Shown: piece after piece, positions 2,796 through 41,363 of the stretch
Layout: every line of letters begins with the position of its first letter
Position numbering within the stretch: position 1 is the first letter of the stretch
Sequence record: OZ035754.1
Length of the DNA: 44,622 nucleotides
Source of the DNA: Kagunavirus BCH953P1
Strand: one strand, 5' to 3'
Position numbers and translations under genes: made by a program
Notes under the pieces: generated by a model
Seen by the model: the letters and a program-made list of their open reading frames with translations, nothing else
What the model was told of the DNA's origin: nothing
Databases searched by the model: none

Positions 2796-3872
2796 ATGCT
2801 ATTAACTTTAGCGCCACAGGGTTTATCTATGAGATTACTTACATCCCTAATCAGCCACCAGATTTGGCTGCAACGCACCGCATCGGGCGAAGTGAAAGAC
2901 CTTGCGCCTTTCATTAAGGAGATGCGGGACGAAATCAAACGGCAGGTGCTGCTGTTCGGTGACGATGGGCGTAGCACCGCGCGACTGAATAAACTGTTAC
3001 GCGACCTGGAAGAAGCACTGAGCGGACTTACGGGCGACTGGCAAACAAAGCTGACGGAAGACCTTAAGGAACTGGCGGAGTATGAAGCAGAGTGGAACGT
3101 AAAAACGCTGACGGCTAACGTTAACGCGGAATTTGTTACACCCGCCGCCGAGCAGGTGTGGTCCGCTGCCGAGTTTCAGCCTCTGTCGCTAAGCGACAAG
3201 CCTGTCGATTTCACCAAGCTGATGTCGGACTGGGGTGAAACGGAGGTTGCGCGCCTGGTAACTGGTGTTAAGATGGGTTTCGTACAAGGGCAAACCACAC
3301 GGCAGATTGTTAAGAATGTTGTAGGCGCTGGCGGACTGGCCGACATCTCAGAACGTAACGCAGCTACCGTAATCCGCACCGCGCTGTCGCACGTATCCAA
3401 CGAAGCCCGTAACGAGACGTACCGCCAGAACGACGACATCATCGAGAAATACGAATGGGTATCAACGCTGGACAGCCGTACCAGTACGATTTGCAGAGCC
3501 AGAGACGGAATGACGTGGGAAATCGGTAAAGGGCCGATGCCCCCCGCCCATCCGAACTGTCGATCGTGCACGGCACCGGTAATCAGTTCAGAGTTCGATT
3601 TCCTGGATAAAGGCGCGAAACGCGCAGCTAAGGGCGCAGAAGGTGGTACTCAGGTAAGCGCAGACACCACTTACTACGAGTTCCTGAAACAACAACCGGC
3701 ATGGTTTCAGGACCAGGCTCTCGGGCCAACCCGCGGTAAGATTTTCCGCAACAGCGGTATATCGCCGGAGGAGTTTCGCGTAATATCTGTAGATGGTTTC
3801 GGGAATCCGCTCACGCTTAAGCAGATGGCGGAACTCGATAAACGTGTTGCTGATTATCTGAAAGGGGAATAA
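2796..3872 (+). CDS. head morphogenesis protein (MuF / SPP1 gp7-like)
   Basis: 358 aa after portal; conserved gene order; start uncertain (alternative ATG at 2829). Confidence 0.65.
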   Translation: MLLTLAPQGLSMRLLTSLISHQIWLQRTASGEVKDLAPFIKEMRDEIKRQVLLFGDDGRSTARLNKLLRDLEEALSGLTGDWQTKLTEDLKELAEYEAEWNVKTLTANVNAEFVTPAAEQVWSAAEFQPLSLSDKPVDFTKLMSDWGETEVARLVTGVKMGFVQGQTTRQIVKNVVGAGGLADISERNAATVIRTALSHVSNEARNETYRQNDDIIEKYEWVSTLDSRTSTICRARDGMTWEIGKGPMPPAHPNCRSCTAPVISSEFDFLDKGAKRAAKGAEGGTQVSADTTYYEFLKQQPAWFQDQALGPTRGKIFRNSGISPEEFRVISVDGFGNPLTLKQMAELDKRVADYLKGE

Positions 3873-3955
3873 TGATGGGCTTTTTCAAAGTAACTGATTC
3901 CTAAGGGTAGAGGCGGTAAGCAAGGCGGCGAAGGTTACTAAGCCAGAATGATATG

Positions 3956-3985
3956 AGGCCCCGTTAAGGGGCCTTAGTTTTATTT
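3956..3985 (+). terminator. rho-independent terminator (aggcccc-gtta-aggggcct then T-rich)
   Basis: GC hairpin followed by tagttttattt; sits after the head morphogenesis gene and overlaps the 3' end of the minus-strand ORF 3964..4200. Confidence 0.55.
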
Positions 3986-4200
3986 AAAGAATATCGCGAA
4001 CTTCTTGTAACCCGCTGGCTCGTTGCGCTGACCATGTTCGATAGCAAAACGTTGAACGTTGTTAAAATCGTTCTCTTCCATACCGTCGGTGCAAAAGGTA
4101 AAAAAAAGTTACGTTTGTTTCCGATAAGCACACGGCTCGCAACATCAATGCTGTAAAGTTCTTCGATAGCGCGTACCACGTTTGCAGTAGCTTTGTTCAT
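3964..4200 (-). CDS. hypothetical small protein (78 aa as read; contains an internal A8/T8 homopolymer, alternative frame possible)
   Basis: Track ORF; reverse-oriented inside the structural block; preceded by conserved promoter P1; C-terminal half runs into the terminator hairpin. Confidence 0.4.
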   Translation of the reverse strand: MNKATANVVRAIEELYSIDVASRVLIGNKRNFFLPFAPTVWKRTILTTFNVLLSNMVSATSQRVTRSSRYSLNKTKAP

Positions 4201-4235
4201 TTCTAAATTCCTTATCTCTCGTTTCGATGTAATGA

Positions 4236-4583: not shown

Positions 4584-4970
4584 ATGAATCTTAAAGCAAC
4601 TGTCGTAGCAGGAGCATGTTTCATCGTCCTGGCTTACGCACACGGCATCTACCAGTATCGCAGCGGCTGGAACGAAGGCCGGGCGAATCTCGTTTCGCAG
4701 CAACAGCAGAAGGCGCAGGCTGAGTTAGCGAAGAAAACACAACGGCAGCAGCAGGACGAATCAAAGGCTGCCGCTGCTGACAACGAAGGCAAGACGAAAT
4801 CAGAGGTGATTACCCGTGAAGTCGTTAAGTACATTAAAACGCCTGGCCGCAGCGTGTGCACTTTTGACCCTGAGCGCGTGCAGCTCAAGTCCCGCGCCGT
4901 CGCAAACGCAAATTCCATCCCCGGATACGACGATGATGCAGCCACCGTGCAAACTGGCACCGCCAAGTAG
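4584..4970 (+). CDS. i-spanin (Rz-like inner membrane spanin)
   Basis: 128 aa; N-terminal TM segment (VVAGACFIVLAYAHGIY), Q-rich coiled-coil middle; SD AAAGGAGA; contains the embedded o-spanin ORF. Confidence 0.65.
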   Translation: MNLKATVVAGACFIVLAYAHGIYQYRSGWNEGRANLVSQQQQKAQAELAKKTQRQQQDESKAAAADNEGKTKSEVITREVVKYIKTPGRSVCTFDPERVQLKSRAVANANSIPGYDDDAATVQTGTAK

Positions 4971-5161: not shown

Positions 5162-5863
5162 ATGAATCGTTTTTTACGTTATCCGTTCCAGGAAGAAGCT
5201 GGAGCAGAAGATAAATCTGGCGGCGGTGACGCGCCGAAAATGTTCACCGCCGAAGAAGTTCAGGCGCTGATTGAGAAAGAAGTCGCCGGACTTAAGGCCA
5301 ATCAGGAAGCGTTGCTGGCGGAGAAGAAAGAAGCCGCCCGTAAAGCAAAAGAGGCCGAAGAAGAACGGCAGCGCGCACACCAGGAGGCGTTAAAAGCCGC
5401 TGGTAAAATGGACGAGTTCGAAAAGACTATTCGTAGCCAGTATGACCCGGTGTTAGCTGAGAAAGATGGTCGCATCTCCAGAATGGCAGAGCGCATCCTC
5501 GGCAGCGAACGTAAAGCAGTGTTAGGCTCTTTCGCAGGTGACTTCATCACCCCGGAAGCAGTGGACATTCTTGCGCCGTTCGTTAAAACTGAGTTTGAAG
5601 GCGATGATGTGGTTACTAAGTTTGTTGGCGCAGACGGTAATGTAATCACGACTGACCCTGAACAGTTCCGCAAATACCTGCGCGAACATAAAGCGTTTTC
5701 GCATTTGATTAAAGCAAATGCAGCTTCCGGCGGCGGGGCTTCCGGTAGCAAAGGCGGCGGGGCCGCACCAGCGTTTAAAGACATGAGTGAAGCGGAGCGT
5801 TTAGCTCTGTATAAATCGAACCCTGCCGAATTTGAACGGCAACTTAAAGCCCTGAGGAAATAA
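5162..5863 (+). CDS. scaffolding protein
   Basis: Ala/Glu/Lys-rich predicted coiled coil, directly upstream of the major capsid gene; start taken at internal ATG (track ORF begins 5108). Confidence 0.65.
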   Translation: MNRFLRYPFQEEAGAEDKSGGGDAPKMFTAEEVQALIEKEVAGLKANQEALLAEKKEAARKAKEAEEERQRAHQEALKAAGKMDEFEKTIRSQYDPVLAEKDGRISRMAERILGSERKAVLGSFAGDFITPEAVDILAPFVKTEFEGDDVVTKFVGADGNVITTDPEQFRKYLREHKAFSHLIKANAASGGGASGSKGGGAAPAFKDMSEAERLALYKSNPAEFERQLKALRK

Positions 5864-5865
5864 TA

Positions 5866-6915
5866 ATGGCAATTACCACTATCGGCGATATCGTAACTGG
5901 CAACATCCCGGTCCTGGCGTCTTATATGACCGAGGACCCGGTAGAAAAAACCGCGTTCTTCCAGTCCGGTATTCTGACCCCGACTCCGTACGCCGCTGAG
6001 ATTGCCCGCGGCCCGTCAAACATCGCTAATATTCCTTTCTGGAAAGCGATTGATACGTCTATCGAACCTAACTACTCGAACGACGTATACCAGGACATCG
6101 CAACCCCTCGTAACGTGCAGACCGGTGAGATGATGGCGCGCGTAGCGTACCTGAACGAAGGTTTCGGCCAGGCGGACCTGACCGCTGAACTGACCAGTCA
6201 GAATCCGCTGCAATCTGTGGCTTCTCGCCTGGATAACTTCTGGCAGCGTCAGGCACAACGCCGTCTGATTGCCACCGCGCTCGGTCTGTACAACGACAAC
6301 GTAGCCGCTACCGATGAATACCATACGCGGAACGATATGGTTATCGACGTGTCTGCTTCTCTGGGCTTCGACGCTGGCGCATTCATCGACGCTACCCAGA
6401 CTATGGGCGATGCGCTGATGGGCAACGGCGGTGAAGTGCTGGGCGCTATCGCGATGCACAGCTTCGTTTATGCGCAGGCGCGTAAGCAGCAACTTATCGA
6501 CTTCATCAAAGACGCCGACAACGACACCTTGTTCGCCACCTACCAGGGCTACCGTGTGATTGTTGATGACAGCATGACTGTGGTCGGAACTGGCCTGAGC
6601 CGTAAGTTCATCTCCATCATCTTCGGCAACGGAGCTATCGGTTACGGTGAAGGCAATCCGTCTAACCCGCTGGAATACGAACGCGAAGCGTCTCGTGGTA
6701 ACGGCGGCGGCGTCGAAACCCTGTGGACCCGTAAGACCTGGCTGCTGCATCCATTCGGCTACAGCTTCACCAGTGCAGTAATCACCGGCAACGGCACCGA
6801 GACGGTCGCACGCTCCGCTTCCTGGCAGGACCTGGCGAACGCCTCTAACTGGAACCGCGTTGTTGAGCGTAAGCACGTACCGATTGCCTTCCTGGTAACT
6901 GGTGTAGGAGCTTAA
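5866..6915 (+). CDS. major capsid protein
   Basis: 349 aa, follows scaffold, followed by strong terminator; high-expression context. Confidence 0.8.
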   Translation: MAITTIGDIVTGNIPVLASYMTEDPVEKTAFFQSGILTPTPYAAEIARGPSNIANIPFWKAIDTSIEPNYSNDVYQDIATPRNVQTGEMMARVAYLNEGFGQADLTAELTSQNPLQSVASRLDNFWQRQAQRRLIATALGLYNDNVAATDEYHTRNDMVIDVSASLGFDAGAFIDATQTMGDALMGNGGEVLGAIAMHSFVYAQARKQQLIDFIKDADNDTLFATYQGYRVIVDDSMTVVGTGLSRKFISIIFGNGAIGYGEGNPSNPLEYEREASRGNGGGVETLWTRKTWLLHPFGYSFTSAVITGNGTETVARSASWQDLANASNWNRVVERKHVPIAFLVTGVGA

Positions 6916-38653: not shown

Positions 38654-39155
38654 CAAAAACGAAGTATTCGAGTACCTGATTGACCAGTTACGACAGCAGG
38701 TAACTAACAACCCGCACAAGCAACAGTGCGAAGACCTGGCGCATGAGGTGCAGTCGCTTAAGAATCAGTTACGTGATGCGTCGGCGCTGGTGGCTGAGTT
38801 GCAGGAAACAATAAAACTAATGAATGAGGACTTCGACAGTGTAACCAACCGCGGCGGCCCACTGCCTAAAGGGAAGAGCTACGTAGTAGGCGAACACGGA
38901 CCAGAGCAATCCGGTTGCCGTAAGGAAGATACTCAGGAATGCGAGCACTCTTGGATTATTATGCCTGGGTTGTTTCTCAGCGAAGGCAATACGAACAACG
39001 TTCCTGGTAGTGAGCTTTGCTCTAAATGTGGTAAACGTGAGTGGGACGACAAGGAATATAAACCGAAAAACGATACACAGGAGTGCGAGCATGAATGGGA
39101 ATATTATTACCCCGACGGTAGGCGTTGTACCAAATGCGGGGTGATAAACTTATGA
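38646..39155 (+). CDS. coiled-coil protein with two C-terminal zinc-ribbon-like repeats (QECEH-x-W ... C-x-KCG)
   Basis: Track ORF 38556..39155, start at internal ATG; repeats QECEHSW...CSKCGK and QECEHEW...CTKCG. Confidence 0.5.
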   Translation: MSNKNEVFEYLIDQLRQQVTNNPHKQQCEDLAHEVQSLKNQLRDASALVAELQETIKLMNEDFDSVTNRGGPLPKGKSYVVGEHGPEQSGCRKEDTQECEHSWIIMPGLFLSEGNTNNVPGSELCSKCGKREWDDKEYKPKNDTQECEHEWEYYYPDGRRCTKCGVINL

Positions 39156-39355
39156 CCAGCATCTTATTTATCTGGGTACTGTCAGCAGGCCAGATGCAAC
39201 TAGCGGCATCAGAAACGTTTTACTCGATGGAGGCGTGCCGGTCAGCGGCACGCGCCGCAGAGAACGCGCACTTCCTGTTTCAGGGCGACAAGCCAAACGA
39301 TTCAGAGGTACGCGCTATCTGCTCACCTAAGCGACTTGGTAAACAGGAGAAGTGA
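39152..39355 (+). CDS. hypothetical small protein with N-terminal signal-peptide-like segment
   Basis: ATGA overlap; MTSILFIWVLSAGQMQLAAS hydrophobic N-terminus. Confidence 0.4.
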   Translation: MTSILFIWVLSAGQMQLAASETFYSMEACRSAARAAENAHFLFQGDKPNDSEVRAICSPKRLGKQEK

Positions 39356-39357
39356 TT

Positions 39358-39537
39358 ATGGTGCAGAGGTACTTATTACAAGGCGGTTTAATCGGGCCGC
39401 ACGATGCGGGTGATTGGGTTGGCTACGAAGATTACGCGGAGCTGGAGCGCAAACTGCGTAACTTCGCCGACCAGGTATTGTACGCACCCTGTTCGAAAGT
39501 TACCGAAGAAATGGCCCGCGAGATTCTCGGAATATGA
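39358..39537 (+). CDS. hypothetical protein (59 aa)
   Basis: Track ORF 39352..39537. Confidence 0.45.
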   Translation: MVQRYLLQGGLIGPHDAGDWVGYEDYAELERKLRNFADQVLYAPCSKVTEEMAREILGI

Positions 39538-39827
39538 GCCTCGCAACTGACATCCTGAAACGAAGCGGCCTTGCGCCGCTGTCACCGAGAGCTAAAACAC
39601 AGATATACAAGCGCCGGGGTAATGCGCTGTTCCCTGAGATTCAGGCCCGACGCAAGGCTATCCGCGCCTGTGGATTCCAGAACGGGAAGGCCGTGAATCT
39701 CGGTGAGTTCAAAACACAGGAACGCGCAGCAATCGCTAATCGGTTATTTAATTACTGGAAATCGCTGGGGTACGATGATATTCCAACGAAACCGCAGAGA
39801 CGACAATACATCTGGAGACATAAATGA
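39534..39827 (+). CDS. hypothetical basic protein (97 aa)
   Basis: Track ORF, ATGA overlap. Confidence 0.5.
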   Translation: MSLATDILKRSGLAPLSPRAKTQIYKRRGNALFPEIQARRKAIRACGFQNGKAVNLGEFKTQERAAIANRLFNYWKSLGYDDIPTKPQRRQYIWRHK

Positions 39828-40264
39828 CTACAATCGCGTTTGACGGAAAGACAATGGCCTGCGACACCCGTGTTGTGTGCGGAAGTAACTGCTACAACAC
39901 TGACACAAAGATATACGAGAATGATTTTGCTGTTATTGGGGTGGCTGGTGATGCTGGAGTAGGGGCTATGCTTATCGATTGCTCTGGTATTCTTCTGGCA
40001 AAGCACTATGACTTCGATTTCGAAGCTCTGGTGTTCGTGAAAGACACAGAAAAGGTGTACAAAGTTGCGTTTTATAAATCATGGGATTGCGCACTAAGTT
40101 CGGTTATCCCTGTTGCCGATGTGCGCGCTGCCGTAGGGTCCGGCGCCCCTTATGCACTGGCGGCTATGTATTTGGGTGAAACCGCAACACGTGCGATTAC
40201 TGTAGCCGCGCAATTCGACACTAACACTGGGGGCAAGGTTATTACCAAACAACTATTAAGATAA
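39824..40264 (+). CDS. HslV / proteasome beta-subunit-like Ntn-hydrolase fold protein (truncated relative to bacterial HslV)
   Basis: N-terminus MTTIAF (Thr after initiator Met), segment KIYENDFAVIGVAGDAGVG and GSGAPYALAAMYL resemble HslV conserved blocks (recalled from E. coli HslV, not searched). Confidence 0.5.
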   Translation: MTTIAFDGKTMACDTRVVCGSNCYNTDTKIYENDFAVIGVAGDAGVGAMLIDCSGILLAKHYDFDFEALVFVKDTEKVYKVAFYKSWDCALSSVIPVADVRAAVGSGAPYALAAMYLGETATRAITVAAQFDTNTGGKVITKQLLR

Positions 40265-40278
40265 TTCCTACCCGTGCT

Positions 40279-40318
40279 ATCCTCCAGTTACTGCATACTT
40301 AATACGCACCTGGAGGAT
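40279..40318 (+). promoter_or_regulatory. stem-loop atcctccag ... ctggaggat (9-bp stem, 22-nt loop) whose 3' arm forms the GGAGGA ribosome-binding site of the holin gene
   Basis: Seen directly; could occlude the RBS. Confidence 0.4.
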
Positions 40319-40323
40319 TCATC

Positions 40324-40632
40324 TTGGATAAATTTACTGAAACAGTGACAGGCTGGCTTCTCGCTGCCGCGCTAGCCGGAGGGGTAATCGGACTACGACA
40401 ACATAAGTCCGTTATTTCTGGCCCTATCGACGGATTCTGCTTTATCGCAATGGGCTTCACTTGCGCCGTATTTGGAGCACCTCTCGCAGCTCAATGGTTC
40501 GGTATCACGGGCGACCGTGAAATCGCGGGCCTGGGCTTCATTATCGCCGTTCTCTGGATGCCTATCTATTCCCGTCTCTCCGGTATCGTCGCCGGAGAAT
40601 ACATCGCACGTCGAGGAGGCCCAGATGAATGA
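40324..40632 (+). CDS. putative holin (membrane protein, TTG start)
   Basis: 102 aa with about three hydrophobic segments; GGAGGA 6 nt upstream of TTG; immediately upstream of endolysin. Confidence 0.5.
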   Translation: MDKFTETVTGWLLAAALAGGVIGLRQHKSVISGPIDGFCFIAMGFTCAVFGAPLAAQWFGITGDREIAGLGFIIAVLWMPIYSRLSGIVAGEYIARRGGPDE

Positions 40633-40897
40633 GTTATTCTGGTTCGGTGGTATGCTGGCAATCGGAGGCACATCGCTGTTTAATGTGTACCATCCGAGTA
40701 TTGACGACGGGCTATTTGGCCGGGTGCTCTATATCCTGACTGCTATCGTCTGCGCTGCCGGATGTATCCACCTGTTACAGGGCAGCATGTCGCCAACGCT
40801 GCCTGAGACATTAATCACATTAGTTGCGCTGCGCCAGATTCGCCAGGCGTGGCTGGCATACGGAGGACATAAGCGTGTCTCGAAACATTTCAGATAA
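40625..40897 (+). CDS. second small membrane protein of the lysis cassette (holin/antiholin-like)
   Basis: 90 aa, two hydrophobic segments; start at internal ATG of track ORF 40472..40897. Confidence 0.45.
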   Translation: MNELFWFGGMLAIGGTSLFNVYHPSIDDGLFGRVLYILTAIVCAAGCIHLLQGSMSPTLPETLITLVALRQIRQAWLAYGGHKRVSKHFR

Positions 40898-41363
40898 TGG
40901 ATTGCATTTCACCGCCGCGTTTGAGGGGTTCCGCGGAACTGCGTACCGCGCTACGCCGAACGAGAAGTACCTGACCATAGGCTACGGTCACTACGGACCG
41001 GACGTAACACCTGGCAAGACCATCACGCCAGGTCAGGGCCTCCTGTTACTGAATCGCGATATGGCTAAGGCCGTAGCTGCGGTTGATGCGGCGGCGCACC
41101 ATTCACTGACGCAGGCGCAGTTTGATGCTGTGTGCGACCTGGTCTATAACGCGGGTGCTGGTGTGATTGCCGCTACTACCGGCACGGGCAAGGCGCTGCG
41201 TTCTGGAGATGTTACGACACTGCGGGCCAAGCTGGCGCTGTTCATCAACCAGAACGGCAAACCGTTACTCGGCCTGCGTCGCCGTACCGCCGGTCGTCTG
41301 GCTCTGTTCGACGGCAAACCATGGCAAGAGGCAGAGGCTATCGGGCGCGCGGTGAAAGGTTGA
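40875..41363 (+). CDS. endolysin, T4/lambda-type lysozyme (glycoside hydrolase family 24)
   Basis: Catalytic-region motif FEGFRGTAY...TIGYGH; GTG start with GGAGGA 7 nt upstream (track ORF starts 40824). Confidence 0.75.
   Translation: MSRNISDNGLHFTAAFEGFRGTAYRATPNEKYLTIGYGHYGPDVTPGKTITPGQGLLLLNRDMAKAVAAVDAAAHHSLTQAQFDAVCDLVYNAGAGVIAATTGTGKALRSGDVTTLRAKLALFINQNGKPLLGLRRRTAGRLALFDGKPWQEAEAIGRAVKG

Follow-up and report, generated by a model that had tools for sequence, protein, structure and literature searches.

A proteasome/HslV-like peptidase homolog upstream of the lysis cassette of a Kagunavirus is a typical member of the phage family PPH

Why does a Kagunavirus carry, at the edge of its lysis genes, a small protein with sequence blocks resembling those of HslV, and could such a protein still be a peptidase? 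The question is raised by one ORF in the stretch of DNA analysed here (44,622 nucleotides, referred to as the window), the genome of a Kagunavirus (Guernseyvirinae). The first-pass annotation had described a 146-aa product starting with MTTIAF, and the ORF is indeed there (Table 1), encoding the N-terminus MTTIAFDGKTMACDTR. A protein of 100% identity is encoded in Kagunavirus BCH953P1 (OZ035805.1). This is a genuine gene, for which chance occurrence of the reading frame is ruled out. It has a dN/dS of 0.185 with respect to the ortholog in Raoultella phage RP180, and 303 close homologs were recovered from a collection of 5.8 billion proteins. A GGAGA Shine–Dalgarno sequence lies 6 nt 5′ of the ATG, which overlaps the TGA stop codon of the 97-codon ORF upstream. 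This ATGA start/stop overlap suggests that translation of the gene is coupled to that of the upstream ORF. Neither a membrane segment nor a signal peptide was found in the protein sequence.

Table 1. Features of the PPH gene and its surroundings (positions in the window)
Feature	Position	Strand	Remarks
Upstream ORF, 97 aa	39534..39827	+	phrog_9632; no Pfam match
RBS GGAGA (39814-39818) and ATGA start/stop overlap (39824-39827)	39814..39827	+	direct sequence reading
PPH gene, 146-aa proteasome/HslV-like N-terminal-threonine peptidase homolog	39824..40264	+	ATG, 146 codons, TAA; stop included
Thr2 codon, predicted N-terminal nucleophile (Thr1 after Met removal)	39827..39829	+	aligned with HslV Thr1
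Asp14 codon, equivalent to Asp17 of HslV and proteasome	39863..39865	+	aligned with HslV Asp17
Lys29 codon, equivalent to Lys33	39908..39910	+	aligned with HslV Lys33
Gly42 codon, equivalent to oxyanion-hole Gly47 of proteasome and Gly45 of HslV	39947..39949	+	
Short loop, residues 54-65 (SGILLAKHYDFD), replacing HslV helix H2 and pore segment	39983..40018	+	model, hhalign gap
Gly105-Ser106-Gly107 codons, equivalent to HslV Gly123-Ser124-Gly125 and proteasome Ser129	40136..40144	+	
Asp132...Thr135 codons	40217..40228	+	spacing as in proteasome Asp166...Ser169
Intergenic hairpin, AUCCUCCAG / 22-nt loop / CUGGAGGAU, 9 bp	40279..40318	+	RNA fold -18.4 kcal/mol, z=-2.9
Holin 1 (TTG start)	40324..40632	+	phrog_2359 holin, E=5.8e-28
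Holin 2	40625..40897	+	phrog_2508 holin, E=5.6e-33
Endolysin (start uncertain, ORF open from 40824)	40875..41363	+	PF00959 Phage_lysozyme, E=8.8e-27

The two HslV-like blocks pointed out in the first-pass annotation, YENDFAVIGVAGDAG and GSGAPYALAAMYL, are both present, and in profile-profile comparison they align with YNDKVIAGFAGGTADA and GSGGPYAQAAA of HslV. Taken as a single sequence, the protein resembles HslV only below the level of significance, and it takes a family profile or a structure model to make the likeness significant. When searched alone it matched the Pfam Proteasome family PF00227 with E=0.17 and 11.9 bits (gathering cut-off 22.4), while the best HslV match in the PDB (E=0.16) covered just the GSG motif. 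A shallow-profile hhalign comparison with HslV likewise produced a sub-threshold match on the GSG motif with a probability of only 35%. With a deeper alignment of about 100 relatives from the representative search, 29-41% identical to the query, the family profile matched T. maritima HslV (E=9e-13), human beta5 (E=1e-10) and BPH (E=6e-10). Against E. coli HslV, 135 columns were aligned by hhalign with a probability of 97.5%, and 60 out of 105 family members individually hit PF00227 at E<=0.01 (lowest E=1.4e-10). An AF2 prediction based on 22 close homologs reached a pLDDT of 34.8, compared with 93.2 (pTM 0.88) when 105 diverse sequences were supplied. This model and its structural comparison, a check proposed in the first-pass annotation, gave a proteasome/HslV-type Ntn fold in which the conserved beta-sheet core is present. 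Since the family-profile matches, the HslV alignment, the PF00227 matches and the high-pLDDT model agree, we regard the predicted proteasome-like Ntn fold as secure. HslV, 20S beta subunits and BPH all lie at roughly the same distance from the protein.

In the model a single helix (residues 44-51) lies between strands 36-42 and 66-72 and is followed by a loop of 12-14 residues. Correspondingly, some 20 positions of the HslV stretch ~64-95, the H2 segment, face gaps in the hhalign alignment. Helices H3 (108-116) and H4 (121-131) are kept and closely spaced. The last strand comprises residues 139-143 and the chain ends three residues later, such that the C-terminal S12/H5 elements are absent from this compact protein of 146 aa.

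The active-site residues were followed in a MAFFT alignment of the query with 135 family members (136 sequences) and in a second alignment, A2, of 105 sequences. There is no propeptide, the threonine coming directly after the methionine; from its established specificity, methionine aminopeptidase is expected to strip a methionine that precedes threonine. Met1 is present in 132/136 family members and position 2 is Thr in 131/136 and Ser in 3. Asp14 is found in 134/136, Lys29 in all 136 as well as in 105/105 rows of A2, and Gly42 in 135/136 and invariably in A2. Each of T2, D14, K29 and G42 of the window protein is thus shared by 96% or more of the family. Gly105 and Gly107 both occur in 136/136 sequences, with Ser106 between them being Ser in 123/136 and Thr in 10. 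The conservation of Thr1, Lys and Ser, which the first-pass annotation had recommended to verify, is therefore borne out. Asp132 is kept in 131/136 members and position 135 is Thr, Ser or Cys in 136/136. Their spacing and their position after H4 suggest that Asp132 and Thr135 correspond to proteasome Asp166 and Ser169. Judged from the alignments, the predicted set of active-site residues is intact with respect to the catalytic triad, the oxyanion hole (Gly47) and the nucleophile-positioning residues as defined for the proteasome family (PMC8665760).

The window protein is a typical member of the phage family PPH (PMC8665760), whose reference set includes, for example, WP_042125023.1. Members of that family are characterized by a length of ~140 residues, the absence of a propeptide, a beta-sandwich core, the lack of helix H2, by which PPH is defined, and carriage by tailed phages or prophages (PMC8665760). 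All these traits, together with the equivalents of Thr1, Asp17, Lys33 and Gly47, are found in the window protein and no difference between it and the PPH family was detected. It matches PHROG 1040 ("peptidase HslV family") over residues 1-143 with E=3.2e-35 and 123 bits, and many Kagunavirus and Jerseyvirus records in GenBank name the protein "peptidase HslV family", "ATP-dependent protease" or "NTN-hydrolase". Since the family has been described and such labels exist, the finding as such is already known. The PHROG 1040 profile has 277 positions, 14-155 of which are covered by the window protein, and BFVD holds phage homologs of 260-280 aa. The longer H2-less relatives share the same core, whereas the C-terminus of the window protein is not extended. 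The only facts that our analysis adds to the description of PPH are a conserved slot upstream of the Guernseyvirinae lysis cassette and a far larger metagenomic family. When 1.84 billion cluster representatives (50% identity clusters) were searched with a profile, 3487 were retrieved at E<=1e-3, compared with the 324 nr90 sequences reported previously (PMC8665760). Our literature search returned no paper giving the activity, structure or phenotype of any PPH, phage HslV-like proteins appearing in genome announcements only.

How does the protein compare with the known systems? HslV (ClpQ; MEROPS T1; TIGR03692/NF003964) is, as the first-pass annotation had estimated, some 30 residues longer, and exactly 30 if the E. 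coli protein (176 aa) is taken. PPH lacks the HslV hallmark of two apical helices, H1 and H2, with a basic pore cluster (Arg86/Arg89/Lys90), its H3-H4 link is shorter and it is not linked to a gene for the AAA+ partner HslU. Opposite HslV Lys28, which Sousa et al. are said to have found in 2000 to bind the C-terminal carboxylate of HslU, hhalign places a gap in PPH. With the HslV equivalog model TIGR03692 the window protein scores 12.3 bits (cut-off 157.75), and no match to the second equivalog model, NF003964, was reported for it. Because H2 and the pore segment are missing and the equivalog score is low, the protein is not HslV proper and canonical docking to HslU appears unlikely. In HslV itself, mutation of Arg86/Arg89/Lys90 cripples the enzyme, and HslU binding induces a structural change in this region (PMC5777263). 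BPH proteins measure ~185-200 aa, keep H2, possess a long acidic pore loop, form tetradecamers and are encoded on the chromosome in stress-related operons (PMC5777263). In contrast to BPH (PDB 5ovs, 5ovt, 5ovu), the window protein has 146 aa, is H2-less and is phage-borne. It differs from the 20S beta subunits (PF00227) by the lack of a propeptide, of H2, of the C-terminal S12/H5 elements and of an alpha-subunit partner.

Two candidates encountered on the way were set aside. The top BFVD match (263 aa, 57% identity) was considered as a fusion of PPH to another domain and rejected in favour of a mis-called start or a frameshift. We take it to be the protein of Salmonella phage SE40 (KY626163.1, 1096-1887), where the 263-aa CDS begins 405 nt upstream of the PPH-homologous region. 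The SE40 record is a low-quality 'complete genome' of 28.9 kb with a truncated lysozyme, and the 263-aa annotation is probably an assembly or annotation artefact. Gp16 of Microbacterium phage Cassita, looked at as a possible PPH in a host devoid of HslU, was dropped on account of its greater length and helix-rich middle region, and is probably a different type of proteasome homolog. The annotated GTG start of Cassita gene 16 ('protease', 3695-4234) cuts off an in-frame upstream sequence ending in ...ITTIAAKATNGK, similar to a Thr-Thr N-terminus, and is probably mis-called.

In the window, PPH closes a block of small ORFs pointing rightward, and those upstream of it have no assigned function. 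The first-pass annotation had placed it among early genes. This agrees with its position at the end of the small-ORF block but not with what follows directly downstream, namely two holin genes and an endolysin gene. RP180, Jerseyvirus Ent3 and Bas73 share the arrangement PPH, holin, holin, endolysin. It is conserved across the Guernseyvirinae, where PPH is a core gene, even though PPH identity between Kagunavirus and Jerseyvirus is only ~64%. The PPH block and the lysis cassette are divided by a hairpin that lies between the PPH stop codon and the TTG start of holin 1. Its 3′ arm holds the GGAGGA Shine–Dalgarno sequence of holin 1 and it is identical in RP180. In Ent3 a different hairpin occupies the same place (3475-3512) and is followed by UUUUUU, which resembles an intrinsic terminator. 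The hairpin in the window may thus control translation of the holin or act as a transcription boundary. Between 35.4 and 44.6 kb, predicted sigma-70 promoters and terminators were no more numerous than in shuffled sequence. In Bas73, whose genome is complete, the rightward block carries on with further small ORFs and then the genes for terminase, portal and head, a layout resembling the nin-lysis-terminase arrangement of lambda, and no AAA+ unfoldase is annotated in this Kagunavirus. According to temporal RNA-seq of Kagunavirus K1B4, 42/57 genes including the lysozyme gene fall into one 'middle' class (PMC12645636).

Several observations concern the genes around PPH. The two holins belong to different families and their genes overlap by 8 nt (40625-40632). 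The endolysin likely starts with GTG (40875), which implies a 23-nt overlap with the end of holin 2; the form annotated in RP180 and Ent3 has 162 aa. Bas73 has an extra annotated ORF of 34 codons between holin 2 and the endolysin. Its Rz-like spanin genes (5509-6004) are annotated within the head module, between head decoration and scaffold genes; on the circular map this is ~8 kb past the holin and endolysin genes rather than next to them. At the corresponding position the window contains an ORF (4584-4970) of 387 nt, the same length as the Bas73 counterpart. A split lysis system with distant spanins is unusual. On the other side of PPH, the ORF that overlaps its start codon contains a segment, GKAVNLGEFKTQERAAIANRLFNYW, which we take to resemble an AP2/integrase-type DNA-binding motif. 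A 519-bp segment (39178-39696) is missing from the otherwise 99.8-100% identical Kagunavirus BCH953P1, with flanks overlapping by 8 bp at the junction. It spans most of ORF 39125-39355 (phrog_3766), all of 39352-39537 and the 5′ half of 39534-39827. Since this segment can be absent from a genome that retains both PPH and the lysis cassette, the small ORFs just 5′ of PPH appear to be dispensable or variable.

In all, we counted 364 phage records with a homolog and 398 IMG/VR stretches encoding a relative. Outside the Guernseyvirinae, PPH is found in a variety of positions. A bacterial copy is flanked by terminase and portal in a region resembling a prophage, and the homolog of Erwinia phage Gungnir39 by head-tail adaptor and head-closure genes; a Skatevirus has it in a group of small genes 5′ of the portal, and a jumbo phage beside a tRNA cluster. 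On metagenome contigs it occurs next to the small or large terminase, after the portal, after a P22-type stabilisation protein or, in some cases, in nin-like regions. For a census of neighbours the 398 IMG/VR matches were reduced to 80 loci, 67 of them with a PPH ORF and 53 left after de-duplication at 70% identity. The 105 immediate neighbours were scanned against PHROGs with simple gene calling, so that the counts are approximate: those annotated were mostly packaging and connector genes, with nine large terminases, four portals, three head-tail adaptors, three head-closure proteins and one each of scaffold, neck and holin. Neither an AAA+ unfoldase nor a single recurring partner was among the families listed for these 105 neighbours at 53 loci, and the homologs on the metagenome contigs described above had no unfoldase gene beside them either. 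PPH hence travels alone and tends to occupy the edges of late modules. Such edges are classic slots for accessory genes.

What could the protein do? We lean towards the view that PPH is a propeptide-free Ntn threonine peptidase of the cytoplasm that works without a phage unfoldase and without canonical HslU docking. Methionine aminopeptidase would take off Met1 and leave the threonine as the N-terminal nucleophile. Lys29 and Asp14 would complete the catalytic triad, Gly42 would provide the oxyanion hole, and Ser106, Asp132 and Thr135 would position the nucleophile, the mechanism being that of HslV and the 20S beta subunits. The enzyme would then act as a threonine peptidase in the cytoplasm of the infected cell. 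It should need no phage-encoded unfoldase, and its independence from HslU is suggested by the missing helix H2 and basic pore segment. Self-assembly seems possible because H3 and H4, the helices that join the rings of the proteasome, are retained; they make the ring-ring contacts in proteasomes (PMC8665760). The likeliest substrates would be polypeptides of the host or the phage that are short or unfolded. A word of caution comes from BPH: its active site is perfect and the protein binds epoxomicin, but neither casein nor standard peptides were turned over (PMC5777263), so that conserved residues are no guarantee of general peptidase activity. Proteasome subunits on their own, not assembled into the ring, show no activity (PMC8665760). 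A bolder version, which we find rather doubtful, is that of a self-sufficient viral mini-proteasome, an oligomeric (ring or novel) unfoldase-free threonine peptidase with a dedicated role late in infection. Such a role, for instance the removal of a host defence or stress protein or an action on a lysis or morphogenesis factor, would explain why PPH is kept beside packaging, connector or lysis genes in many tailed phages.

Other explanations have to be weighed against a free-standing peptidase. PPH could serve as a replacement for HslV, its rings docking host HslU and either redirecting ATP-dependent degradation to targets useful for the phage or simply titrating HslU. We judge this unlikely, given that H2 and the Arg86/Arg89/Lys90 pore segment are absent, that the presumed HslU-carboxylate binder Lys28 faces a gap, that the equivalog score of 12.3 bits is far from 157.75 and that the likeness of PPH to HslV is about equal to that to 20S beta and BPH. 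Even BPH, a closer descendant of HslV, failed to pull down HslU (PMC5777263). The first-pass annotation had also left room for an inactive decoy, and a dead or purely structural PPH, poisoning host HslV rings or sequestering HslU, would be compatible with the truncation relative to HslV and with the lack of activity reports for any member in our literature search. This idea is strongly disfavoured by the catalytic residues, each of which is either invariant or conserved to 90% or more in a family that is otherwise divergent (29-41% identical to the window protein). A decoy would have no reason to keep the whole set of Thr1, Asp, Lys, Gly and Ser, nor is it favoured by the dN/dS of 0.185, and we consider it highly improbable.

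The location of the gene in Guernseyvirinae invites a further proposal, that PPH cleaves or breaks down a holin, an antiholin or another lysis regulator and in this way contributes to the timing of lysis. The PPH-hairpin-holin-holin-endolysin order, maintained in Kagunavirus and Jerseyvirus in spite of the divergence of PPH, speaks for such a link, as does the holin found once among the 105 neighbours in other phages. However, the usual neighbours outside Guernseyvirinae are terminase, portal and connector genes or nin-like regions, and within the subfamily the hairpin, terminator-like in Jerseyvirus, parts PPH from the holin gene while PPH appears coupled to the upstream ORF instead. The absence of a membrane segment or signal peptide also weighs against a function in lysis, which we therefore regard as improbable. 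Finally, PPH might be a non-degradative Ntn enzyme that acts specifically on one phage or host protein, by transpeptidation, ligation or cleavage at a single site. The precedent is connectase, a proteasome homolog that acts as a protein ligase and owes its specificity to a helical insertion between S3 and S4 (PMC8665760). This insertion is missing from the PPH model, and no constant neighbour gene hints at a dedicated substrate, which makes a connectase-like role unlikely.

The window copy is one more PPH gene and nothing new in itself. The family it belongs to is very common, with 3487 clusters at 50% identity in metagenomes, and the Guernseyvirinae, in which PPH is a core gene, are much used in phage therapy and biocontrol. 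Should the mini-proteasome idea turn out to be true and the loss of H2 entail a new quaternary structure, PPH would represent a new architectural type in the proteasome superfamily. Kagunaviruses grow on O-antigen-restored E. coli K-12 (BASEL collection), which makes knockout and biochemical studies practical, and the value of the gene described here is that of a convenient experimental entry point into PPH function.
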